A stretch of 64,000 nucleotides of DNA from Candidatus Levyibacteriota bacterium (lineage in GTDB: Bacteria > Patescibacteriota > Microgenomatia > Levybacterales > UBA12049), in assembly GCA_003173895.1 (NCBI GenBank), contig PJMG01000001.1:15576-79575 (forward strand), given 5' to 3'. This document shows, piece by piece, positions 2,114 to 52,000 of this stretch (positions are counted from its first letter, which is position 1; every line of letters begins with the position of its first letter). The notes beneath the pieces were generated by a model. The model saw only the letters and a program-made list of their open reading frames with translations. It was not told the origin of the DNA and did not search any database. A program made the translations under genes and the position numbers.

Positions 2114-2186
2114 TGGACGATGAGGGACTTGAACCCCCGACATCTTCAGTGTAAATGAAGCGCTCTACCAACTGAGCTAATCGTCC
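2114..2186 (-). tRNA. tRNA-Val (anticodon TAC)
   Basis: The reverse complement folds as a cloverleaf: acceptor GGACGAT/ATCGTCC, D-arm GCTCAGTTGGTAGAGC, anticodon stem CTTCA/TGAAG with loop TTTACAC, T-arm GGGGGTTCAAGTCCCTC. Confidence 0.8.
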
Positions 2187-7493: not shown

Positions 7494-8183
7494 TTATTCT
7501 TTTATTGCGTACTCCAATGCTTTTCTGGCAAGAAGACGAGTAGTATCAATAAAAGGTAATGGAGAATTCTCTTTTGTAATAATTATTGGTAACTCTGTGC
7601 ATCCCAGTATTACACTATCACATCCTCTCTCTTTCAATTTTTGTATAACTCCTAGTACTTTTTTTGTAGTTTCAATTGTAGGATTACCAGGGATAACATT
7701 CTCCCATAAAACTGTATTAACAATTGCTTGTTCTTTTTTTGTAGGTACTACTGGATTAATGGAAACTTTTTTTAGAGGATTTATATATAAATTCCCACTC
7801 ATTGTTTCTTCTATACCTAATACACCTACTTTTTTAAAACCCATCTTTTGGCATTCATTAACTGTTACATTTACAATACTTAAAATTGGTAAAGGAGACA
7901 TCATTTGCGTTTGTTTGATAGCATAATGAGCTGCATTTGAGGGAATGATAATAAAATCTGCACCAATTAAAGCTAGTTTTTTAATTGAATTATTTAAAAC
8001 TATTGCGACACCCTTATAATCTTTTATCTTTTCCTTTTGAGTAATTTTATCGTGAGAAAAAGTATGTAAAGAAATTTCAGGATGAATGTTTTCTCCTAAT
8101 ATTTTTCCTGCTTGAGAAACTATCTCTTTATAACAGAGAGCTGCTCCTTCTGCAGTTACTGCTGCAATACCAATATGTTTCAT
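7494..8183 (-). CDS. Aspartate/glutamate racemase family protein (aspartate racemase-like), paralogue 1
   Basis: Asp/Glu racemase signatures IIIPSNAAHY and VILGCTELP, containing the two catalytic Cys. Paralogous to 16022..16831. Confidence 0.7.
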   Translation of the reverse strand: MKHIGIAAVTAEGAALCYKEIVSQAGKILGENIHPEISLHTFSHDKITQKEKIKDYKGVAIVLNNSIKKLALIGADFIIIPSNAAHYAIKQTQMMSPLPILSIVNVTVNECQKMGFKKVGVLGIEETMSGNLYINPLKKVSINPVVPTKKEQAIVNTVLWENVIPGNPTIETTKKVLGVIQKLKERGCDSVILGCTELPIIITKENSPLPFIDTTRLLARKALEYAIKE

Positions 8184-8253: not shown

Positions 8254-9423
8254 TTATTGATTACTATATTCTACTTTTTTACCATCATTCATACCAGCAA
8301 TTGCTTCATCTATTGCTGTCTGGTTAGTTTTTTCCAAAGCAGCAGGAGCAGGGAAACCAAATGAACCTTCTGCGTGTTTCTTTATAGCACCTCTATGAGC
8401 GCGTAAGAAAAGAGCAAATTTATCACTTGCTTGTTTTGCTAATTCGATAGCTAGTTCTCGTTGATGATGATCTAATGTAGATTCAGCAATTAATTCAGGA
8501 AGAGTTTTAAACTTTCCCTCTCTTACTTGTTCTATTAGGGAATCGGCATCTCTATCATAGGCTTTTTGATTTTCATCTCTTAAGAGTCTATCTTTAAATG
8601 CTTCATTTCCTCCTAGGAAATATCCTGCTAAATATGACCAAGCTGAAAATGCACCTGTTCCATGTCCTATATACTGTCCGTTACCTCCTAGATAAGGATC
8701 TAGTTGATAAAATTGTCCTGGAGTACGTACTCTATTTAAATAAACTACTGCTTCTACTACTGCATCTAAATCTTGTACCACCTCACTAAGTCTATCAAGT
8801 GATAAAATAGCGTAGTCACCTTCAACAATTTCTTTAAAAGTCTTATCAATACCACTTTGGGTTCTATAAAGAAGAATTTCTTGATCACGAGCTGCACTAG
8901 GTTCTAGAAAAGTTCTCGGTTCATCTACAGGATGATATAAAGATATATCTGACCAAGAAAGATTAGGATGTCTATTTTCTTTATCTGCTAGTAACTTTGT
9001 TCTTTTAAGAAGTAGAGAAGCATCTCTTCTAGAAATATATTCAGAATTTGTATTAAATGCACTATCATGTGCAATATCTAATGATCTAATCATCCAAACT
9101 AAATCTAAAATTGCAGCTCTTCTTTCTGTTACTCGATCATCTCTTAAAAGATTCTGGAATACTCCCTCTGGTATTTGTTTCAGCATTTCTTCTGCCTTAT
9201 CAAACAACTGACTGGCTGACATCTCACCATCCCTAACCATTTTATTATGTTTACCTAATTCATTTACTACATACTCACTAACTAACCCTAAAGGTCTAAT
9301 TTGTTCAATAACATTATCTGTATTTTCTATATGATTATTATTTAACAGTGTAACTGGATTAGATTCTGATGCAGGAATATTTGGTTGTTTTAGTTTTAAT
9401 AAACTTTCTCTATTAATGCTCAT
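8254..9423 (-). CDS. Hypothetical protein
   Basis: Long ORF, third gene of a minus-strand three-gene cluster. No motif recognised. Confidence 0.45.
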   Translation of the reverse strand: MSINRESLLKLKQPNIPASESNPVTLLNNNHIENTDNVIEQIRPLGLVSEYVVNELGKHNKMVRDGEMSASQLFDKAEEMLKQIPEGVFQNLLRDDRVTERRAAILDLVWMIRSLDIAHDSAFNTNSEYISRRDASLLLKRTKLLADKENRHPNLSWSDISLYHPVDEPRTFLEPSAARDQEILLYRTQSGIDKTFKEIVEGDYAILSLDRLSEVVQDLDAVVEAVVYLNRVRTPGQFYQLDPYLGGNGQYIGHGTGAFSAWSYLAGYFLGGNEAFKDRLLRDENQKAYDRDADSLIEQVREGKFKTLPELIAESTLDHHQRELAIELAKQASDKFALFLRAHRGAIKKHAEGSFGFPAPAALEKTNQTAIDEAIAGMNDGKKVEYSNQ

Positions 9424-9512
9424 AATATTAAAATTAGCGAAGATACCAATTTACTTTAAATATATAATAGAGAAATTTATTTTGTCAAGAGTCACGACAA
9501 CAATTATTTGAT

Positions 9513-9776
9513 TTACAATCCAGTATTTTCCCCAGGATAAAATCTATCAAAGTAAGATTTGTCATGACCTGTACGTTCTTTTCCTAAAATATTATCTTCA
9601 TCAGAAATCCATCCCGAACGTAACCACCTTCTTATATTACTAACCCTACGTAAACATTCTGGACAACCACACCCTCTACCATCCTGAAGATTATGCATTT
9701 GACTCTCTATAAGTGTTCTATTTGCCTGAGATTGTAGATCCCCTTGTACAAGAGGAGTTAATTTTTGTTCTGACAT
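9513..9776 (-). CDS. Small hypothetical protein with CxCxxC motif
   Basis: GCGCPEC motif. Lies between two larger hypotheticals on the same strand. Confidence 0.35.
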   Translation of the reverse strand: MSEQKLTPLVQGDLQSQANRTLIESQMHNLQDGRGCGCPECLRRVSNIRRWLRSGWISDEDNILGKERTGHDKSYFDRFYPGENTGL

Positions 9777-9803
9777 AGTTCAAATTATTATTTATTAATC
9801 AAT

Positions 9804-11261
9804 TTATGCTGTAAGTGGTAATGCTGTAACTTTATATGAACCAATTTTTTGTTTATATAAATCAGTTTCTACAATATGTCTTCCTAAAATATGGGGATAT
9901 TCATATGCAGGATCTTCTTGATCATGTGTATAGCTGTAAACTTCAATTTGTCCATTTGTTATAACTAAGAGAGATACATGTTTACTATGTGTACCATCTA
10001 AAATATTTGATAAATAAATTCCATCAGAAAGGTAAGAGAAATCTTCAATAATTCTCTCATTTTCAGAAAAACCTAAAGCTTGTTCTACTGTTCTCATAAT
10101 TCTTCCTGAATATTTTCCTACTTGATAACCTAATAATTTAAATGCCCTTCTATATATCTCACTACAATCAAAAATACCTCTTATATAGGGGACATCTAAC
10201 CCATATAAAAAATCTAATAACTCTTGTGGTGTTTCTAATTTTTCAGTTATTTTTTCTGATGATAAGTTATCAATAGGATAAAGACTAACATCTTTAGTCT
10301 TTTCATTTCTTTGGAGTATGTAATATTGTCCTGAATCTTCATAGACAGTATCACCAGGAAGTAATGTCCTTTTTTCTCTATTAATATCAGTATAGAAAAT
10401 AGGTTCACCACCCTTATAGTAAACTACCTTTGCATTTTGAATTATTTTTTGTTCATCGATACTAGCAACTTGATCAATATTAATCCATCCATATCCATCT
10501 CCACTAGTGGCTAATGCATAGTCTCCATAAGTAGCGAGAAGTACTACTTTATCACCACGTCCAAAACTGGTAACTTGCATTAAATTTACTTCATCTGAGT
10601 CAAATTCAGCTGAATTATTACTTGCCGCTATTGAAGTGGGCAACAGATTACCATATGTGATAGAATCTATTACTTCTACTTGTGGTCTTTCATTTGTGTT
10701 AAAAATTTTTAGTCTATCATTACTTTCTATTCCACGTCTTCTTTGACCTAAAGTTGTACGTAAATTCATTTTTAAATCTTCGATTAAAGGAAATATATCT
10801 ATCTGACTATCTATACTCTCCTTTTGAAAAAATGGAATATATACATGCTCAGGAAATAACCGAGAAGTACCATCTATCATACGAGATATCATTGATATTA
10901 CTTCTTGTTCTCCTAATGTAGATATAGATTCTGAAAGATGATTATATGGCGGAAGTTTTTTCAGCTTTTCAGCAAAACTAAGATTAGATACATCAGGAAT
11001 TTCATCTCTTTCGCTTGAAAAAGCTTTATAAGCTTCCTCATCTCCTCTTAACAAAGCAGAAGCTTGAGAAGAAGTGAGATGAACTGAATCTCGATAAATT
11101 TCTGGATCTGCTGCACCTATAAGTTCATTAAGTATTGGGTGGAGTTCATTCAAGGATGTAGGTTGTGTTAAACCTGCACGAACTCTTTTAGCTAAATCAT
11201 TGTAGATATTTAAAGTTAAATTTTCATTCATATTAATTGAATTAGTATTGTAACCAATCAA
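9804..11261 (-). CDS. Hypothetical protein with SH3b-like and NlpC/P60-like (Cys/His) regions, no signal peptide
   Basis: Central GDYALATSGDGYGWINIDQV is bacterial SH3-like. C-terminal GIFDCSEIYRRA followed by GTHSKHV suggests a papain-like Cys...His pair. No N-terminal signal peptide. Confidence 0.45.
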   Translation of the reverse strand: MIGYNTNSINMNENLTLNIYNDLAKRVRAGLTQPTSLNELHPILNELIGAADPEIYRDSVHLTSSQASALLRGDEEAYKAFSSERDEIPDVSNLSFAEKLKKLPPYNHLSESISTLGEQEVISMISRMIDGTSRLFPEHVYIPFFQKESIDSQIDIFPLIEDLKMNLRTTLGQRRRGIESNDRLKIFNTNERPQVEVIDSITYGNLLPTSIAASNNSAEFDSDEVNLMQVTSFGRGDKVVLLATYGDYALATSGDGYGWINIDQVASIDEQKIIQNAKVVYYKGGEPIFYTDINREKRTLLPGDTVYEDSGQYYILQRNEKTKDVSLYPIDNLSSEKITEKLETPQELLDFLYGLDVPYIRGIFDCSEIYRRAFKLLGYQVGKYSGRIMRTVEQALGFSENERIIEDFSYLSDGIYLSNILDGTHSKHVSLLVITNGQIEVYSYTHDQEDPAYEYPHILGRHIVETDLYKQKIGSYKVTALPLTA

Positions 11262-11284
11262 TTAAAAAAGTACAAGAAAATTTT

Positions 11285-11311
11285 TGACAACTTAGTATTT
11301 TTATGTATAAT
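11285..11311 (+). promoter_or_regulatory. Sigma70-like promoter, TTGACA-15-TGtATAAT (extended -10)
   Basis: TTGACA at 11285-11290. TATAAT at 11306-11311, preceded by TG. The ATG at 11319 is 8 nt downstream, implying a leaderless mRNA. Confidence 0.5.
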
Positions 11312-11318
11312 CTAATTT

Positions 11319-12518
11319 ATGTGGCAGCAAGCAAAAAATACATATCATCTTTTTCAAGGAATTACTGCTAATATTTATTATGGAAAACCTGGTAGGAAAT
11401 TAATTGTTATCGGTGTCACGGGAACTGATGGGAAAACCACTACAGTAAATCTTATTTATCATATTTTAAGAAATGCAGGGAAAAATGTATCAATTGTCTC
11501 AACTACAGGGGCCAATATACACGGAAAACAATCAAATTTAGCATTTCATGTTACTAATCCCGCTTCCTGGCCTTTACAGAAATTTTTAAATCAAGCAGCA
11601 AAAACTAACTTTAAAGAGAATTATATTGTTTTAGAAGTAAGTTCTCATGGTATTGACCAACATAGAGTATTTGGAATACCTTTTACTATTGGCGTTGTAA
11701 CTAATATAACTCCAGAACATTTGGATTATCATAAAACTTATAATGAATACGTTAGAACTAAAACTAAGCTTCTTAACAGAGCTAAAATAGCAGTAATAAA
11801 TAAGGATGATAGTTCTTATTCAAAAATATTAAGGTATCTAAAAAATAAAAATGTAGTTACTTATGGCATGGGTAAAAATGTTGATGTAAATGAAAAAATT
11901 TTCTCTTATAAATCACCTCTTATTGGAGATTTTAATAGATATAATGTTTTAGCTGCTATTAGTGCTTGTAAAAGTTTAGGACTAACAAATAAAGAGATAG
12001 CAAAAGGCATTGAAACTTTTAAAACTCCTCTAGGTAGAATGAATAAAATACCCAATAAGCTTGGAATTAATATTATTGTCGACTATGCCCATACTGCTAA
12101 TGGTATTAAACAAGCGCTAACAGCACTCAAAAAACAAAGTAAGAAAAAACTTATTGCAATTGTGGGTGGAGAAGGGTATAGAGATGAAAAGAAAAGACCT
12201 ATTATTGGAGAGGTTGCTACAAAGTTAGCTAATTATGTCATTATTAGTGCTGTGGATCCTAGAGGACTTCAAGAGGAAATTAATAAAGAAATCTTAGCAG
12301 GTGTTAAAAAGGCAGGCGGTAAATTAGATAAAAATATTTTTGTAATAAATGATCGAAAAGAAGCTATTGATTTTGCAATTAATAAACTGGCTAGAAAAGG
12401 AGATACCGTTAGTATGTTTGGTAAAGGGCATGAGAGATCTATGAATATAGATGGAAAACATGAGATTCCTTGGTCAGAATACGAAGCTGTAGCAAGTGCT
12501 CTTAAAAAACATATATAA
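11319..12518 (+). CDS. Mur ligase family protein, MurE-like, lacking the N-terminal substrate-binding domain
   Basis: Mur ligase P-loop GVTGTDGKTTT begins near residue 30. C-terminal GKGHE motif is typical of MurE. SAVDPRG sits at the position of the DNPR-type motif. Confidence 0.6.
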   Translation: MWQQAKNTYHLFQGITANIYYGKPGRKLIVIGVTGTDGKTTTVNLIYHILRNAGKNVSIVSTTGANIHGKQSNLAFHVTNPASWPLQKFLNQAAKTNFKENYIVLEVSSHGIDQHRVFGIPFTIGVVTNITPEHLDYHKTYNEYVRTKTKLLNRAKIAVINKDDSSYSKILRYLKNKNVVTYGMGKNVDVNEKIFSYKSPLIGDFNRYNVLAAISACKSLGLTNKEIAKGIETFKTPLGRMNKIPNKLGINIIVDYAHTANGIKQALTALKKQSKKKLIAIVGGEGYRDEKKRPIIGEVATKLANYVIISAVDPRGLQEEINKEILAGVKKAGGKLDKNIFVINDRKEAIDFAINKLARKGDTVSMFGKGHERSMNIDGKHEIPWSEYEAVASALKKHI

Positions 12519-12547
12519 TCTTCATTTTGAGGAATTAGTATTAAATT

Positions 12548-13480
12548 ATGAATAAGGTATCTTTAATTGGAATTCCTTTAGATTTGGGGGCAGAAAATTT
12601 GGGTGTAGATATTGGCCCTAATGCATTTCGTTATCAACATATTAAAGAGAAACTAGAAGAAAGTGGTATATTTATAAATGATCTAGGTAATATTCTTTGT
12701 AATCCCCGTACTTCTTTAAGAATAGGTGAACCTAAATTGAAGTATCTTCAAGAAATAGTTCGTGTATCAGAAAAATCTGCGAATAAAATTTTTAATATCA
12801 TTAAAAAAAATGGGAGAGTTATTGCTCTGGGAGGAGATCACTCAATAAGCTTAGGTTTAGTCTCGGGCGCTTCGGCAGCATTAAATGGTGATTTAGGATT
12901 AATATATCTTGATGCTCATGGAGATATGAATACTGATAAAACAACTTCTACTGGAAATATTCATGGTATGCATTTAGCATCATTAATGGGTTTTGGAGAT
13001 AAGAGACTTACAAATGTTTATGATACTTCAACTAAAATTAAAAAAGAAAATTTACTTCATATAGGAAGTAATGATCTAGATGAAGGTGAAATTACATTTA
13101 TAAAAAAAGAAGAATTACAATGTTATAGTATATTTGATATTCTATCTCATGGACTAGCTCCTTTATTTAAATTAATTGATAAACTTCAATCCTCCGTTAA
13201 AAATTTATGGATAAGTTTAGATCTAGATGTGATTGACAGCATTTATGCCCCAGGTGCTGGCATGCCTAATAAAGCAGGATTAAGTTATAGAGAAATAACT
13301 ACTATTGCTCAGTATATTGGAAATCATTGTAATATTATTGGATTGGATATCGTAGAGTATAATCCTTTACAAGATATCGAAGGAAAAACTGCTGAATTAG
13401 GAATTGAACTTATTGCTAAATTATTAGGACATAACTATAGTTGGTATACTAATTACATGAAAGAAAACAAAATTAAATAA
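12548..13480 (+). CDS. Arginase/agmatinase (ureohydrolase) family protein, arginase-like
   Basis: Ureohydrolase Mn-binding motifs GGDHS, DAHGD and SLDLDVID. Confidence 0.7.
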   Translation: MNKVSLIGIPLDLGAENLGVDIGPNAFRYQHIKEKLEESGIFINDLGNILCNPRTSLRIGEPKLKYLQEIVRVSEKSANKIFNIIKKNGRVIALGGDHSISLGLVSGASAALNGDLGLIYLDAHGDMNTDKTTSTGNIHGMHLASLMGFGDKRLTNVYDTSTKIKKENLLHIGSNDLDEGEITFIKKEELQCYSIFDILSHGLAPLFKLIDKLQSSVKNLWISLDLDVIDSIYAPGAGMPNKAGLSYREITTIAQYIGNHCNIIGLDIVEYNPLQDIEGKTAELGIELIAKLLGHNYSWYTNYMKENKIK

Positions 13481-13484
13481 GCTT

Positions 13485-14261
13485 ATGAGTAATTCTCTCT
13501 ATGAGCTAGCAAATGAGTATATAAATTTTAGGATTGGATTTAAAAAAATTAATGTTCCATATGCCATATCCTCTTATGCAATTAAAAAATATGGCATTGG
13601 AAGTAATATACAAGCAGCTACTACAGGCAAATTTGAAAATTATTCAGGTAAAGGAACTCCTAATCAAATCAGAAAAGCATTAATTAATGCAGCAAAAAAA
13701 GAAAACTTCAATTTGGATAAAGCTACGTCAAAAGATATTTATAAATTTATGGAATCGCATGGAATAGGTATAGATTGTTCTGGTTTTGTTTATAACATTT
13801 TAAATACATATTTAATTAAAAAAGAAAATAAAAGTTTAGATAATATAATTCTTCGCTATAAAGGAGTATTAGGATATTTTGAAAGATTTTTACTTGTAAA
13901 AAATCGTGTGAGAAGAAGCAGTGCGAATACCTTAACAAATGATTTAAATACAATAAAAATAAATAAAGTAAAAGATATAGAATTAGCCGATATAATCAGA
14001 CTTACTCATTCTGATTGGAAGGGGAAACATATTGCAATTATTGTTGATGTAAATAAAAAATATATTACCTATGCTATGAGCAGTGAGTATACTAAAATTA
14101 AAGGAGCTCATTTTGGGCGAATTAAAATAATAGATCCAGATAAAAGCCTTGAAAAACAACAATGGGAAGAGTTAACAAAGAAGGGTAAAAATTATGGAAG
14201 AGATGAATTTAATCCCAAAAGAGGAGATGCTGTTAAAAGATTAAGAATATTTAGTAAATAA
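13485..14261 (+). CDS. Hypothetical protein with NlpC/P60- or CHAP-like Cys motif
   Basis: GIDCSGFVYNIL with downstream His residues. Weak. Confidence 0.35.
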   Translation: MSNSLYELANEYINFRIGFKKINVPYAISSYAIKKYGIGSNIQAATTGKFENYSGKGTPNQIRKALINAAKKENFNLDKATSKDIYKFMESHGIGIDCSGFVYNILNTYLIKKENKSLDNIILRYKGVLGYFERFLLVKNRVRRSSANTLTNDLNTIKINKVKDIELADIIRLTHSDWKGKHIAIIVDVNKKYITYAMSSEYTKIKGAHFGRIKIIDPDKSLEKQQWEELTKKGKNYGRDEFNPKRGDAVKRLRIFSK

Positions 14262-21553: not shown

Positions 21554-21636
21554 TGCGGATGAGAGGAGTTGAACCTCCACACTCTTGCGAGCACAGCCAC
21601 CTCAAGGCTGCGTGTATACCATTTCACCACATCCGC
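21554..21636 (-). tRNA. tRNA-Leu (anticodon GAG)
   Basis: Reverse-complement cloverleaf with a long variable arm and anticodon loop TTGAGGT. Confidence 0.75.
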
Positions 21637-21697
21637 GTGTGTACAATTATAACAAATCTTACTATTCAGCTGTTGAAGTAAATTTCAAATAACTTAG

Positions 21698-21781
21698 TGT
21701 CGGGGGAGGGACTTGAACCCTCACGCTTTTTAAAGCATAGCGTTCTGAACACTACGTGTCTACCAATTCCACCACCTCGAC
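21698..21781 (-). tRNA. tRNA-Leu (anticodon CAG)
   Basis: Reverse-complement cloverleaf with a long variable arm and anticodon loop TTCAGAA. One acceptor-stem mismatch. Confidence 0.7.
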
Positions 21782-25457: not shown

Positions 25458-25539
25458 GGGTCGGTGGCGGAATTGGTATACGCGTATGGTTTAGGACCAT
25501 ATCCCGCAAGGGTTGGGGGTTCAAGTCCCTTCCGACCCA
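25458..25539 (+). tRNA. tRNA-Leu (anticodon TAG)
   Basis: Acceptor GGGTCGG/CCGACCC, anticodon stem TATGG/CCATA with loop TTTAGGA, long variable arm CCCGCAAGGG. Confidence 0.75.
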
Positions 25540-37531: not shown

Positions 37532-37564
37532 CTTAAAAATATCCTTTGGTATAATCAAACAACG

Positions 37565-37637
37565 GACGGTTAGCTCAGTTGGTTAGAGCGTTACATTGAC
37601 ATTGTAAAGGTCACTGGTTCGAGTCCAGTACCGTCCA
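37565..37637 (+). tRNA. tRNA-Val (anticodon GAC)
   Basis: Acceptor GGACGGT/ACCGTCC, D-arm GCTCAGTTGGTTAGAGC, anticodon stem TTACA/TGTAA with loop TTGACAT, T-arm ACTGGTTCGAGTCCAGT. Confidence 0.8.
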
Positions 37638-47567: not shown

Positions 47568-49559
47568 TTGACAAATTACAAACATCATGATATAAGACAA
47601 GTTAAATTATATTATATGCCTACTTTACCTGAACAATTTCAAGCAGCCATGGAAAGGATACAAGGTGCTATAGGTGGAGCAGAAAATCGTATTGAAAGAT
47701 CGCGAAAATTTCTTAATGACATCTCTAGAGGTAGTAATTACACATTTGTACCAGGAGATAAATTTGCAATTGATCCCACTACTGGAATAGCAACTTATAA
47801 TGTTGAATTTTATCTTGAGCGTGGTTATTCTGAAAGACAAATGCTATTCGCTTTAGCTCATGAATTGAGAGATCATCTGGTTGAACACGATAAGTTAGTG
47901 GCTACGCCTGAAGGAGAAATAGCAGCCGAGAATCAACAAATAGAACTAGCAAATAAAGAATGGCTTAGAATTTGGCGAAATTCTAGAGAAGATATTGCAG
48001 GTAATCTATCTATTCTTAAATATCTTGCTCCTTCTTTACGTCCTGCTACTGAACGTTTATATAGAAAAAAACTTTTCCCAAATAGAGATTTTACCCAACT
48101 TCCTAGACATGTACAATTTTCTTATGCGGTTTTGGTAAAAACCATGTTACCAAATGCAACTGATATTAAAATTTCTCCTGAAGTTCAAGAAGTTTTAGAT
48201 AGGCTATCTAATACAGAATTTGAAGCTCCAGATAATGACGGAACCCTAACTAACATGGAAAATCCATTAGCCTATGTAACAGCTCCAGATGATTTATATA
48301 GCGCAAATGAACGCGCTTTATGGAGATTACAAGTAAGTAGAGATCTTATCGAACCTGAAATAGAAAAACTTTATCAACAAGATCTGGCTAATCCTAATAA
48401 AAATTGGTCAAAAGGAAATAATGATGATTCATTTTCAGAAGTTTATAAACAATATGATGACAGTATTCATCCTGATCCATGGGATAATCCCAATGAGCCA
48501 AAAAAAGAAAAAAAAGGTGGTAAGGATAAATCTGATGACAAAACAGGAGAGGATAAAGAGGCTGAAAATGAGGATGAAGAGGAAAAAGAAGCGGATGCAG
48601 ATATAGATGAAGATGAATTGCACGGAGATATGGAACAAAAAATGCGTGCTGCATTTATGCGCCAAAATAATCTAACTGAAGGAGAAATGAGTGTATTAGA
48701 TAATTATGATAGTGTATACAAACAAATTCAACCTTACCTAGATAAATTAAAAACTATATTTTTATCTATCGTTGATAGAACCATTAATATAGAGGAGGAT
48801 ATTGCTATACGTCAGAGAAGAGGACGTTTAACGTCTGAGGGAATTCATAGTGCATATGTTTATAGTAAAAGAGGTATTAGTGAACCACCTCCGGGTCGAA
48901 CAAATTTATCAGGAGAAATAATTCATGAAGAAGTACGACCTATTCCTTCCACTTGGCATTTAGTGGCTGATCAAAGCTCAAGTATGCAAGGAGAAAGAAC
49001 TCGAGCTCAATTACGTTCGGCAGTATTGTTCATTGAGGTGCTAGCTGAGATTGAAGAACAATTAAAATCTATGAGAAATATACATTCAAGCGCTATTGAC
49101 ATCAAATCTGATTTAAGAGGTTTTAGCTCAGGCGTAAGAATATATAAAAAAATTGAAGATATACTTTCTCCTCAAAAAAGAATCGAAATATTTCAAGGAT
49201 TATCCCGAACTTTTTTAGATACTAACGATTATGATGCCTTGGAACAAATTGCAAATGAGATTGATAAAAAAGGCTCAAATTATAAAAATGAAATTGCTAC
49301 TAGACATAGGAAAGAAATTGTGGTAGTGTTATCAGACGGACAAAGCAATAGCAGCAAGCTATTAAAAGAACAGATAGAAAGATTAAGAGATATGGGAGTA
49401 AAAGTTATAGGACTAGGTATGACTGAAAGTGCAATATCAATTATAGATTCCTATAGTCCTGAAGGAAGAGTTTGTAAAGATATTTCAGATTTACCTAAAT
49501 ACTTAGCTGAAATTATTCTTGAAGATTTAGTTGTAAAAGAAAGTGAGGAAACAAATTAA
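47568..49559 (+). CDS. VWA-domain protein with N-terminal HExxH (zincin/SprT-like) motif and acidic linker
   Basis: The MIDAS motif D-Q-S-S-S lies within LVADQSSSMQGER. VVLSDGQSN is typical of VWA domains. An N-terminal motif LAHELRDHLVEHD contains HExxH. A poly-acidic D/E/K stretch follows. Confidence 0.55.
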   Translation: MTNYKHHDIRQVKLYYMPTLPEQFQAAMERIQGAIGGAENRIERSRKFLNDISRGSNYTFVPGDKFAIDPTTGIATYNVEFYLERGYSERQMLFALAHELRDHLVEHDKLVATPEGEIAAENQQIELANKEWLRIWRNSREDIAGNLSILKYLAPSLRPATERLYRKKLFPNRDFTQLPRHVQFSYAVLVKTMLPNATDIKISPEVQEVLDRLSNTEFEAPDNDGTLTNMENPLAYVTAPDDLYSANERALWRLQVSRDLIEPEIEKLYQQDLANPNKNWSKGNNDDSFSEVYKQYDDSIHPDPWDNPNEPKKEKKGGKDKSDDKTGEDKEAENEDEEEKEADADIDEDELHGDMEQKMRAAFMRQNNLTEGEMSVLDNYDSVYKQIQPYLDKLKTIFLSIVDRTINIEEDIAIRQRRGRLTSEGIHSAYVYSKRGISEPPPGRTNLSGEIIHEEVRPIPSTWHLVADQSSSMQGERTRAQLRSAVLFIEVLAEIEEQLKSMRNIHSSAIDIKSDLRGFSSGVRIYKKIEDILSPQKRIEIFQGLSRTFLDTNDYDALEQIANEIDKKGSNYKNEIATRHRKEIVVVLSDGQSNSSKLLKEQIERLRDMGVKVIGLGMTESAISIIDSYSPEGRVCKDISDLPKYLAEIILEDLVVKESEETN

Positions 49560-52000
49560 TGGCAAATATAGAATTAACACCAATACCTAACAGACCTGCT
49601 AATTTAGATCCCAGAGTTATAGCTGCAGCAGATGCAATAACAGAAAGGACTAGACTTGAAAGCGTACAAGCAGGACTGGGAACTAGTATTCAAACTGGAA
49701 TATATTCTGAATTAGATCAAAGAACTAGAAGAGGATTAGCTGCTAGATTAACTGAATTAGATTCTCAAATAAATGTAGTACAGCAAGATAAAAGACTTAA
49801 TGAAGCTTTAGACAACGAAATTCAACGCAGAGATATAATTAGTCAACGTGCTCAACAAGCTTTAACTAGTGATAAAAGTATATATGATCTAAGAATTCTA
49901 GAACGGGGTTTAGTAAATAATAAACAGATACCTGTAGAAGCAAGACAAACTGCCATAAGTGAACTTAAACAACAATTATTAGAAGAATTACAAAGAAGAC
50001 AAGCTTTATTAAAAGAACCTAGCGTATTTTTTGAATATAGGCTGCAAAAATTGATGGAGTACCAACAGCAACTCTTGACAGGAGATCATTTTGTGGAATT
50101 ACCTACTCGTTTAGACCTTCAATATAAAATAATTGATGAATGGCTACATGGAAGTAGAGTTATGGCAGTAGGGCATACCGGTACTGGAAAAACTGAATTA
50201 ATGAAACATGCAGCAAGAGTTGTATCTGGAAAAGAACCATATGTTCTCCAAGGTGATCCTCATTTATTACCAGGTGAATTTGTGGGAGATTGGACTATGC
50301 AAGATGGATCAACTGTTTATCAACCTGCTGATTTAGTCAAAGCAATTATTCGTGGAGAACCATTCATTTATGACGATATGAACGTAACTCCAAATAGAAC
50401 TAATATGGGACTTAAATCTCTTTTTAACTTAAGAACAGGTAGTAAAATTAATGTTAAGAAACCTGATGGATCAGGAGTAGTACAAGAGACAGTAGCTGAA
50501 GGTTATTATTTTGGAGGGACACAAAATCCTCCAACAACTCAGTACAGACGCGAAGAAACATGGACAGAAATTGATAAAAATTTTTCTCATATAGATGTAG
50601 ATTATTTACCTGCAGATGAATTATATGACTTAGTAGTAGCGTCTATGTTAGATAGTACAGGTGGTTTACCCTTATCTAAAAATGACGCTCAAAATACTCT
50701 TAGAGAGCTTTGTGATACAGTAGCTTTTATACAACAAGCATATACGGGACAAGCAAATATTGAAGGTAGTGGTGGAATAATTAATAAAACTCAAACTTTA
50801 GAAAAAACGGTTGTAGATGCAGGAAAAATTATTTCTATGTTAAGTGGTTGGGAAGGTGCATCATCTTCTGAAAGTTTTAAAACTTATATAAGCCGTCAAT
50901 TTTTAAGAGAGTTTATTAATAATAAAAATTTGCCACCTTCTGATAGATACTATCTATTACAAATTATGGTTTTAAGAGGATTTTTCAGGGGCTTTAATGT
51001 ATCAGAATTTAATATTGAGGGTTATCCTACAGAGATACTTAAGAGTGACCTAAGTGCCTGGGGATTTTCATCAGCAGATAAACAAACTCATGATCATCAA
51101 GAATTATATCCTGAAGAAGTAGCAAGATTGGATCCTTACGGAAAAGTTCTTTCACTTATGAGAGAAGTTAATGTTCACCCTGATCACGAGGTTGTGAGAC
51201 AAGGAAGAAGAAGGATAACGCCTATTAGTTCTAATGATGACGAGAGAGTAGCAGCTATATTAAGAGGAGGAAAAAAAAATAATGGGTCAACAACGTCCAC
51301 ATCAGGAGAAGCAATAGTAGAATCTCATAATGAAGCGTTAGCACGTATAAAAAGTGTTAAAAGACAGATTAAATTTATGACTACTCCTCCAAGGACATTT
51401 TTTGTATTTCCAGGAGTAGGCATAGATGAACTTGAGGATTTACGACCTGCAATCATTAATCTTTTAGCTCCATTAACATACAATAGATTAAGATGGTATG
51501 AAAGATTATTGATTAATAGGGAAAAACAGCTAGTTAATGCTATTCAGAGATCTCCAGTATTCTCAGTTGAGGAATGGACAGAAGCTGTAAAAGCATATAA
51601 TGCTTTATCTTCTAGAGAAAATACTGAAGGCAATACAGATGAATTTTCTTTTACTGTAATTCCTGCAGACCGTAGAATGACTTATAAATTCACAATGTCT
51701 GGAGAAGCAGCAAGTGCAATTAATAATCGTTTTCCTAGACTTACTAGTGGCGAAGATGTAAAGAAGATCTGGAATGTCCTTTTTTCTAGACCAATCAAGG
51801 ATGATAAATATTCTGAGGTACAAAAAGCAACTATATTATCATTATATCAATTATTAAGAACTACTAATCTACCAGACATAAAACAAATGGCTTATATGTA
51901 TTTAAAAGATTTTATCTCTTCTTCTAGAAATTCTGCTTTAGTTGAAAAATGGTATGGTGCCAGTCAAGCTGCTTCAATTCGCCGAGCTCTAGGCTTATAA
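49559..52000 (+). CDS. AAA+ ATPase domain protein (MoxR-like partner of VWA protein), large
   Basis: Walker A VGHTGTGKTEL. Coiled-coil N-terminus. Start overlaps the upstream stop (ATGG/TAATGG). Confidence 0.5.
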   Translation: MANIELTPIPNRPANLDPRVIAAADAITERTRLESVQAGLGTSIQTGIYSELDQRTRRGLAARLTELDSQINVVQQDKRLNEALDNEIQRRDIISQRAQQALTSDKSIYDLRILERGLVNNKQIPVEARQTAISELKQQLLEELQRRQALLKEPSVFFEYRLQKLMEYQQQLLTGDHFVELPTRLDLQYKIIDEWLHGSRVMAVGHTGTGKTELMKHAARVVSGKEPYVLQGDPHLLPGEFVGDWTMQDGSTVYQPADLVKAIIRGEPFIYDDMNVTPNRTNMGLKSLFNLRTGSKINVKKPDGSGVVQETVAEGYYFGGTQNPPTTQYRREETWTEIDKNFSHIDVDYLPADELYDLVVASMLDSTGGLPLSKNDAQNTLRELCDTVAFIQQAYTGQANIEGSGGIINKTQTLEKTVVDAGKIISMLSGWEGASSSESFKTYISRQFLREFINNKNLPPSDRYYLLQIMVLRGFFRGFNVSEFNIEGYPTEILKSDLSAWGFSSADKQTHDHQELYPEEVARLDPYGKVLSLMREVNVHPDHEVVRQGRRRITPISSNDDERVAAILRGGKKNNGSTTSTSGEAIVESHNEALARIKSVKRQIKFMTTPPRTFFVFPGVGIDELEDLRPAIINLLAPLTYNRLRWYERLLINREKQLVNAIQRSPVFSVEEWTEAVKAYNALSSRENTEGNTDEFSFTVIPADRRMTYKFTMSGEAASAINNRFPRLTSGEDVKKIWNVLFSRPIKDDKYSEVQKATILSLYQLLRTTNLPDIKQMAYMYLKDFISSSRNSALVEKWYGASQAASIRRALGL

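Follow-up and report, generated by a model that had tools for sequence, protein, structure and literature searches.

A zincin-like VWA protein and a large MoxR-class ATPase encoded as a gene pair in Candidatus Levyibacteriota, with a conserved motif at the junction to variable modules

Pairs of a MoxR-class AAA+ ATPase and a protein with a VWA domain are common, and the mechanism is understood for few of them (NorQD, CbbQO and Rea1). In this study, we analyzed a pair of this kind, open reading frame (ORF) A and ORF B, in a stretch of 64,000 nucleotides (nt) from a Candidatus Levyibacteriota bacterium (contig PJMG01000001.1, positions 15,576 to 79,575 of the forward strand; hereafter the window). 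[quoted passage not shown] In NorQD, the VWA domain puts a finger into the pore of the ATPase, and the linker is remodelled (PMC13036017). The NorQ-NorD and CbbQ-CbbO systems share with the present pair an AAA_5 motor and an adaptor made up of an N-terminal specificity domain, a disordered linker and a MIDAS VWA domain. They differ from it in that their N-terminal domains are unrelated and that each has one fixed client (cNOR or Rubisco), which is usually encoded nearby; their ATPases, of ~270 amino acids (aa), have a canonical Walker B motif and Arg finger, and neither a tag nor variable modules are known in these systems. Midasin/Rea1 has in common with the pair an AAA_5 partner, an acidic low-complexity region directly before the MIDAS domain and the MIDAS domain itself, which is the best structural match. 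It is, in contrast, one polypeptide of ~5,000 aa with six AAA modules and no zincin-like domain, and its ligands are the ubiquitin-like (UBL) domains of ribosome assembly factors.

A version of these pairs with a metallopeptidase was previously the subject of one paragraph in a survey of jumbo phages, in which the vWA protein of a MoxR-vWA pair has the metallopeptidase at its N-terminus and a role in virion assembly was proposed (Iyer et al. 2021, PMC7824862). We conclude that the pair in the window, a divergent copy of a widespread module, is probably a cellular, expanded relative of this phage metallopeptidase-vWA and MoxR pair, which is the nearest described system. Added here are a cellular family of at least 185 clusters with the same adaptor layout, a much larger ATPase and a junction tag that marks swappable modules.

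In the vWA-MoxR-VMAP systems, the vWA domain is N-terminal and variable effectors are C-terminal, and a model has been presented in which a peptidase releases the effector domains (Kaur et al. 2020, PMC7159879). These ternary systems combine variable, retroelement-diversified modules with a peptidase (PMC7159879, PMC10907252). The family described here likewise has a MoxR-vWA couple with highly variable modules, some of them retroelement-diversified, and a putative peptidase. It differs in that VMAP, which those systems need, is not present, in that the zincin-like domain is fused to the N-terminus of the vWA protein, and in that the variable modules are located on the ATPase or in separate tagged genes rather than at the C-terminus of the vWA protein. 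An earlier note, which was made from the sequence of the window alone, had suggested that the pair is a non-canonical member of the VMAP systems. This assignment was rejected: no third gene stands beside the pair, the search for a VMAP-like third partner that the note called for found none among the neighbours in the window, PADLOC returned nothing significant, and the domain order is wrong, with the VWA domain C-terminal and a conserved domain at the N-terminus. Nor is the VWA-first gene order unusual, as the note had held, since the order varies within the family (Table 1) and a phage CobT-like/CobS-like pair is also VWA-first.

Domain structure and pairing of the two proteins

The N-terminal domain of ORF A is a member of a conserved family, which has HExxH or HExxxH, E or D at +3, and NxxxD(I/V)xxN ~40 residues further on. 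With the N-terminal 289 residues as the query, an exhaustive phmmer search found 185 cluster representatives at E<=1e-3 (68 at E<=1e-10), mostly of 600-750 aa; the 185 clusters are a lower bound on the family. Word-indexed homologue searches yielded 1, 2 and 3 matches, almost all of them the query itself, which is likely because low-complexity words filled the candidate list, and the search with the N-terminal domain only solved this problem. Two alignments were analyzed, one of 135 members drawn from the 185 representatives and prefiltered for the motif, and one of 50 members unfiltered on the motif. In the latter, H82 and E83 never vary, and conservation of H87 is at least 90% (residues of ORF A are counted from the ATG at 47616 unless TTG numbering is stated). 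In the former, the motif is HExxH in 89 members and HExxxH in 46, and the His-Glu...His columns align with each other. ORF A belongs to the longer type: the regular expression HE..H has no match in it, HELRDH being HExxxH, and the literal HExxH occurs only in relatives. Among residues outside the motif filter, N122 is kept in 133 of the 135 members, D126 in all 135, N130 in 125, Y149 in 132, H165 in 126, Q167 in 133 and R174 in 116. Judging from this alignment, D126 is a candidate for the third metal ligand.

The AlphaFold2 model of the N-terminal domain alone (pLDDT, the predicted local distance difference test score, 90.5; predicted TM score 0.86) has three strands (43-61), a helix at 73-94 that contains the motif, and then a helix with N122, D126 and N130. 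The topology is thus predicted to be zincin-like, the order of the elements being as expected for a zincin. A Foldseek search of this model against the PDB gave no significant match, and the best five matches were all selecase, with E-values of 0.37 or worse. Selecase is a minimal zinc peptidase. Pfam has no model for the domain, and the HExxH by which zincins are recognized is itself replaced by HExxxH in ORF A. SprT and WLM were rejected as identities of the domain, because Pfam gave no such match for ORF A (E<=1), for the 50 relatives or for the family consensus (E<=10). The Pfam families DUF2201_N (putative metallopeptidase) and DUF2201 (VWA-like) stand in the same order, an HExxH domain and then a VWA-like domain; DUF2201_N was weakly matched by 2 of the 50 relatives (E 1.9e-4) and was matched neither by ORF A nor by the family consensus.

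The model of the full-length ORF A, built on the 50-sequence alignment (pLDDT 83.9), showed a confident N-terminal domain, a disordered segment at aa 291-332 (pLDDT <50) and the VWA domain. The disordered segment coincides with the K/D/E-rich run, and the linkers of the relatives at the same place vary in length and composition. The VWA domain was found by Pfam at 31.7 bits (gathering cut-off 23.8, E 2e-7). The MIDAS residues D452, S454, S456, T536 and D574 vary little or not at all across the 50 relatives, and DxSxS is kept in 111 of 114 full-length relatives. In a Foldseek search of the full-length model against the PDB, the MIDAS domains of human MDN1 and fungal Rea1 ranked first, with NorD among the top matches, and fold matches to MIDAS domains reached E 6e-8; the MDN1/Rea1 MIDAS aligns to the VWA region of ORF A over ~312 columns, as against ~200 for other VWA domains. 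The VWA domains of MDN1, Rea1 and NorD all work with AAA_5 rings. We regard ORF A as a VWA/MIDAS co-factor of ORF B that in its build resembles NorD, CbbO and the midasin/Rea1 tail.

On the basis of its sequence, ORF B is a MoxR-class (AAA_5) AAA+ ATPase. Pfam AAA_5 was matched at 43.3 bits (cut-off 22, E 5e-11), and the partner homologues score 47-52 bits; the closest sequence match of the core in the PDB is NorQ. The sensor 1 residue N323 aligns with the A(T/S)xN of the relatives and is intact, and Arg331, near Lys340, is conserved. ORF B is atypically large for a MoxR-class ATPase. The similarity of the relatives runs well beyond the core, into the N-terminal helical region on one side and as far as ~aa 530 on the other, and BLAST alignments of ORF B with its relatives start at aa 33-145. 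The coiled-coil call for the N-terminus is based on composition and a weak BBP1_C match. In two metagenome loci, the ATPase homologue is split into two ORFs, just before Walker A (L020:9802-12344) and just after the first strand region (L003:6539-9040); these breaks could be due to assembly error or to decay, or the split could be real.

Most of what the earlier note had described is borne out by these searches. The two overlapping genes on one strand, the second of 813 aa, with a TAATG overlap, were read again from the sequence; the D/E/K-rich linker is present in ORF A; the C-terminal VWA domain with an intact MIDAS (DQSSS) and the large AAA+ ATPase with Walker A (GHTGTGKT) agree with the Pfam matches and, for the MIDAS, with its conservation in relatives, and the fold matches of the MIDAS domain accord with an AAA+ (MoxR) and VWA pair. 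The proposed N-terminal HExxH zincin stands in part: the HELRDH string and a conserved, predicted zincin-like domain are there, while the motif is actually HExxxH, and the Pfam check, which recovered AAA_5 and VWA, did not recover SprT-like or WLM. The note had also named findings that would speak against its reading. A hidden Markov model (HMM) does support the AAA+ call; the Walker B Glu and the aligned Arg finger, on the other hand, are substituted, and the zincin fold matches in the PDB are not significant.

The two proteins go together across loci. A homologue of ORF B adjoins a homologue of ORF A in nine of nine informative loci, which exclude L023 and L024, whose contigs are too short to judge pairing. 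Overlapping or abutting gene pairs, as in the window, are also seen in L021, L020, L022 and L025.

The relation to the phage pair was then assessed. In the Ochrobactrum phage vB_OspM_OC, a 699-aa 'CobT' (p014, of the p013/p014 pair) lies directly 5' of a 312-aa CobS-like gene. In this CobT-like protein, HESAH comes first and NVCEDVRID after it, followed by a low-complexity linker and a VWA domain with DxSxS. The two pairs thus share an HExxH-type domain, an NxxED motif, a linker, a C-terminal VWA domain, the VWA-first gene order and an AAA_5 ATPase core. The family HMM placed both motifs of the phage protein in register (NSREDIAGN with NVCEDVRID), but weakly, with an E-value of 3e-6 for one comparison. 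Fold matches of the N-terminal model in BFVD were phage proteins of 600-800 aa named 'CobT VWA domain' or VWFA (TM 0.40-0.47, probability up to 0.99, E 0.05-0.25). The 312-aa phage ATPase differs in that it is without the N-terminal helical region, the middle region, the LDPY junction and the variable module, and the window pair differs in being chromosomal and among housekeeping genes. The published jumbo-phage example, ASV44728/9, was not reached in three stretches of Atu_ph07, and the BFVD match was not found in S-CBP3.

We also asked whether the pair serves cobalamin synthesis as a cobaltochelatase CobS/CobT pair or is a CobS/CobT-like cassette of phage origin in a prophage, which we consider highly improbable. 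Apart from the fold matches, it is favoured by the AAA core of L004, a canonical relative, which is ~30% identical to phage CobS (556 phage records matched; ORF B itself had no phage match), and by weak matches of 2 of the 50 relatives to TIGR01651 CobT and CobT_C. ORF A itself, however, matches no CobT model, including that of NCBIfam, and the ATPase, which has extra conserved regions, is over twice as large as CobS. A CobNST chelatase was rejected because the window has no CobN (no ORF exceeds 813 aa) and no equivalog match, and a prophage because the pair is flanked by pheST and cell-wall genes, not phage genes, and has no phage similarity: tblastn searches of ORF A and ORF B against 50,697 phage records were empty, as was that of the N-terminal consensus against phages. 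Genome and viral contigs scanned with the ATPase alignment gave no match. NCBIfam and PHROGs contained no informative family for the pair, and PDB sequence searches with the proteins and the N-terminal profile gave nothing useful beyond the NorQ match.

The junction motif and the interchangeable modules

Behind the GFF...W segment of ORF B there is a short motif, LYPEEVARLDPY, with the consensus L-x-x-x-(E/D)-V-A-x-L-D-P-(Y/F). Fourteen instances were tabulated, and more were seen in later scans. In a six-frame translation of the 468 kb of fetched loci, among them ~190 kb of phage DNA and over a dozen AAA_5 loci that are all unrelated, the regular expression of the motif had 16 matches, all within modules of this kind; in that of the window it matched exactly once, in ORF B. 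The motif is located either inside fused ATPases or, in separate genes next to the pair, at residues 8-25. Such separate genes were found in L021 (two downstream and two upstream), L004 (one) and L032 (four downstream and one upstream). The rest of the motif-leader proteins varies, and two of those of L021 are paralogous.

What follows the motif differs from relative to relative. The C-terminal module of ORF B resembles only that of P0003 (27% identity), an ATPase homologue on a 2.7 kb metagenome contig, and has no similarity to the modules of the other relatives; L003, L004 and L021 share a second type, and L020, L022 and L027 each have a different one. To judge from these sequences, gene fission and fusion happen precisely at the junction motif, and the motif is read as a conserved handle of interchangeable modules. 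We found no prior description of this tag-and-module organisation in the literature.

The module of ORF B had no significant match in Pfam or the PDB. Residues 536-599 (window 51164-51355) have a weak similarity to designed armadillo-repeat proteins (whole-sequence E 1.6e-4, no single stretch passing), and the module may, on this slight resemblance, be a helical repeat.

In one relative, the module is a target of a diversity-generating retroelement. The gene for the ATPase of L027 (AAA_5, 907 aa), a homologue of ORF B, ends in the variable region (VR) and is followed by the template repeat (TR), by bAvd and a reverse transcriptase, and then by the zincin-VWA gene. The retroelement targets the extreme C-terminus of the ATPase: the variable region is the last 100 nt of the gene, the template repeat is 358 nt downstream, and of the 20 mismatches between the two in 106 positions, 18 are at template adenines. 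Diversification that is specific to adenines is characteristic of a ligand-binding surface. No lectin-type model of Pfam matched the L027 module, and the window copy is without a variable region or template repeat. A statement in PMC10907252, which cites Paul et al. 2017, gives AAA ATPase-CLec proteins as the commonest retroelement targets in bacteria that belong to the candidate phyla radiation (CPR). L027, with its C-terminal variable region and the adjacent bAvd and reverse transcriptase, is like these targets by description only.

A further set of genes was observed in L024:2-5194, where three tandem paralogous ORFs beside the family member P0021 share another N-terminal peptide, MPKPPQFEGGGL. 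This 5.3 kb contig contains no ATPase, and a related upstream ORF is cut at the contig edge so that its N-terminus is unseen. The MPKPPQFEGGGL ORFs may be a second kind of tagged cassette.

Proposed action of the pair and competing explanations

The explanation that we prefer, and hold tentatively as possible, is that the motor and the MIDAS adaptor capture tagged modules, which the zincin-like domain then processes, in a conflict or surveillance role. On the model of NorQD, CbbQO and Rea1, the VWA domain would dock on a hexamer of ORF B, and the MIDAS ion would bind an acidic residue of the client. The client would be the conserved tag (E/D)VAxLDP(Y/F), which in the fused forms follows the ATPase body and in relatives stands at the start of as many as five neighbouring genes; its Asp could be the MIDAS ligand, and the tag peptide LYPEEVARLDPYGKV is a candidate ligand of the VWA domain of ORF A in the presence of Mg2+. 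ATP-driven pulling through the linker might present the tagged polypeptide to the zincin-like domain, and cleavage at or near the tag might then release or activate the variable module. Since different relatives carry unrelated modules, one of them retroelement-diversified, the modules are read as recognition or effector domains, and their variability favours conflict or surveillance over housekeeping maturation.

A more far-reaching form of this explanation is that the pair is the core of an undescribed tag-guided processing system, in which the leader (E/D)VAxLDP(Y/F) is recognized and interchangeable sensor or effector modules, some of them hypervariable and either fused or encoded as cassettes, are cleaved or released. 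We regard this as doubtful. If true, the MoxR-vWA conflict systems would have in it a counterpart made of two proteins, and it would supply the missing partner and a mechanism for the AAA-ATPase retroelement targets reported to be commonest in CPR bacteria. If the tag is a client signal, it also offers a simple, testable model of how a MIDAS adaptor chooses substrates for an AAA+ motor, and gives a defined partner to those AAA ATPases of small-genome bacteria that are retroelement-diversified.

Another interpretation is that the pair is a dedicated chaperone for assembly or maturation, like NorQ-NorD, CbbQ-CbbO, RavA-ViaA and the phage CobS/CobT-like pair, in which the ATPase acts by way of the VWA adaptor to remodel a single specific client complex and the HExxH-type domain confers client specificity or binds metal without cleavage. 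We consider this rather unlikely. It accords with the architecture, which is that of the MoxR partners, an N-terminal domain, a disordered linker and a MIDAS VWA domain (PMC9976466), with NorQ as the best PDB sequence match of the ATPase core, with the position of the pair among housekeeping genes and with the virion-assembly role proposed for the phage counterpart (PMC7824862). A chaperone of a single client is, however, made less likely by the modules, which are unrelated, occur in tandem arrays and are retroelement-diversified once, a poor fit to one fixed client, and by the lack of a conserved client gene alongside the pair, the flanks differing between loci. In addition, no member of the 50-member alignment has lost the Glu behind the first His, the putative catalytic residue.

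It is worth noting that a number of facts weigh against the capture and processing of tagged modules. Zinc binding, proteolysis, complex formation and tag recognition are all inferred. The genes flanking the pair in the window are housekeeping genes, and PADLOC gave no significant match and has no model for the pair. L003 is a relative of the ATPase alone; immediately upstream of it lies an exonuclease-like gene rather than a VWA gene. At the level of profiles, the phage protein is weakly linked to the family (12.4 bits, hhalign probability 26%). Finally, the window copy departs from most of its relatives at several positions. All HExxxH members but ORF A have A, C or S as the residue inserted at i+4, where ORF A has Asp, and position 174, mostly Arg in the family, is Val in ORF A. 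The Walker B motif is DD, the catalytic Glu being changed to Asp, only in ORF B and P0003, and is DE in 8 of 10 partner ATPases. By alignment, Lys340 appears to occupy the arginine-finger position in ORF B, as in P0003, where 8 of 10 partners have Arg (IVRVF, ISRMF, FLRRF and similar).

Together with the one-residue insertion in the motif, these substitutions could mean that this copy is enzymatically degenerate, binding ATP and barely hydrolysing it, with an inactive zincin-like domain, and is a nucleotide-dependent scaffold or switch or is decaying. Such degeneracy is unlikely in our view. P0003 keeps both ATPase substitutions at 34% identity to ORF B, which argues for selection rather than simple decay. 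Both ORFs are intact and appear coupled, and H82, E83, H87, N122, D126, N130 and the whole MIDAS site are retained; the intact ORFs, the retained metal-ligand candidates and the substitutions shared with P0003 speak against a dead gene. The longer motif is that of 46 relatives, and M49 enzymes, the dipeptidyl-peptidase III family, are active with HExxGH. Within the preferred explanation, the window copy, with one fused module, a DD Walker B, Lys at the finger position and the atypical HELRDH, is probably a slow or switch-like variant, as far as its residues indicate. If the tag is a client signal, this copy, with the Walker B Glu and the aligned Arg-finger residue of its ATPase both changed, is a natural variant with which to ask if the system needs hydrolysis.

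Gene layout, neighbours and other observations

Features of the pair and of the related loci are listed in Table 1.

Table 1. Positions of features in the window and in related loci (locus coordinates carry the name of the locus).
Feature	Position	Strand	Basis or remark
ORF A, zincin-like domain, charged linker and VWA/MIDAS protein	47616..49559	+	647 aa from ATG; NCBI product P0001
Zincin-like N-terminal domain, aa 1-262	47616..48401	+	phmmer family and AlphaFold2 model
Motif HELRDHLVEH, aa 82-91 (HExxxH, then E90)	47859..47888	+	read from sequence; family alignments
Second conserved motif NSREDIAGN (N122, D126, N130)	47979..48005	+	135-member alignment
Lys/Asp/Glu-rich low-complexity linker, aa 295-334	48498..48617	+	composition
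C-terminal VWA domain	48936..49556	+	Pfam VWA, aa 449-604 (465-620 in TTG numbering)
MIDAS DxSxS (DQSSS), aa 452-456; T536 and D574 complete the site	48969..48983	+	sequence and alignment
Ribosome-binding-like GAGGA and TAATG stop/start overlap	49545..49561	+	read directly from sequence
ORF B, large MoxR-class AAA+ ATPase	49559..52000	+	813 aa; longest ORF of the window
N-terminal helical (coiled-coil-like) region, conserved in partner ATPases from ~aa 63	49616..50143	+	weak BBP1_C match; BLAST
AAA_5 ATPase core	50144..50638	+	Pfam AAA_5
Walker A GHTGTGKT, aa 205-212	50171..50194	+	sequence and alignment; intact
Walker B variant PFIYDDMN (D272, D273)	50360..50383	+	alignment
Sensor 1 TQNPP (N323) through Lys340 (IDKNF)	50519..50578	+	alignment
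Conserved middle region after the core, ending GFF...W	50639..51073	+	ten-ATPase alignment; no Pfam match
Junction motif LYPEEVARLDPY, aa 516-527	51104..51139	+	regular expression and tabulated instances
C-terminal variable module, aa 528-813	51140..51997	+	comparison of C-termini of relatives
Motif-leader genes, L032	L032:4638-5030, 8798-12700		~12-residue leader (E/D)VAxLDP(Y/F)
Motif-leader genes, L021	L021:7100-7504 (-), 7565-7933, 11812-13840		same leader
Motif-leader gene, L004	L004:1727-2593		same leader
Variable region of L027	L027:4185-4290
Template repeat of L027	L027:4543-4648
bAvd and reverse transcriptase of L027	L027:4646-5921
ATPase gene after VWA gene	window; L021; L020/L030; L022; L031; L032		L021, Candidatus Levybacteria metagenome-assembled genome
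ATPase gene before VWA gene	L025; L027		retroelement between the two in L027
ATPase and VWA genes divergent	L028/L029

The ORF list gives a TTG at 47568 as an alternative start of ORF A. The NCBI product of 647 aa begins at the ATG at 47616, and the N-termini of the homologues align there; this ATG is therefore preferred and is probably the true start, and the TTG is probably wrong. The stop codon of ORF A and the start codon of ORF B have one base in common, and the Shine-Dalgarno-like GAGGA lies 10 nt 5' of the ATG of ORF B. The overlap together with the GAGGA indicates translational coupling, and these sequence features point to ORF A and ORF B being a translationally coupled pair.

The neighbours of the pair in the window are PheS, PheT, a glyoxalase, an 88-aa small membrane protein, GH18, a FecR-like protein and PBP1A. 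No synteny of the flanks was found between loci, including between the window and the Levybacteria locus. These neighbours and the non-syntenic flanks imply that there is no third conserved partner.

A sequence TTGACA-17 nt-TATAAG includes the TTG of the listed ORF A (window 47568-47615), just 5' of the ATG. It was dropped as a promoter, since promoter-like sites in the region are no commoner than in shuffled sequence; likewise, the frequency of promoter-like and terminator-like sites near the pair was not above that in shuffled sequence. At the gathering threshold, Rfam found only five tRNA genes in the whole window (2114-2186, 21554-21781, 25458-25539 and 37564-37637), none near the pair.

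ORFs A and B are not chance products, because they are so long in DNA of 30% GC and each has homologues. The GC content shows a mild rise over the two genes (0.33-0.34 in window 48001-52000, as compared with ~0.30 over most of the window).

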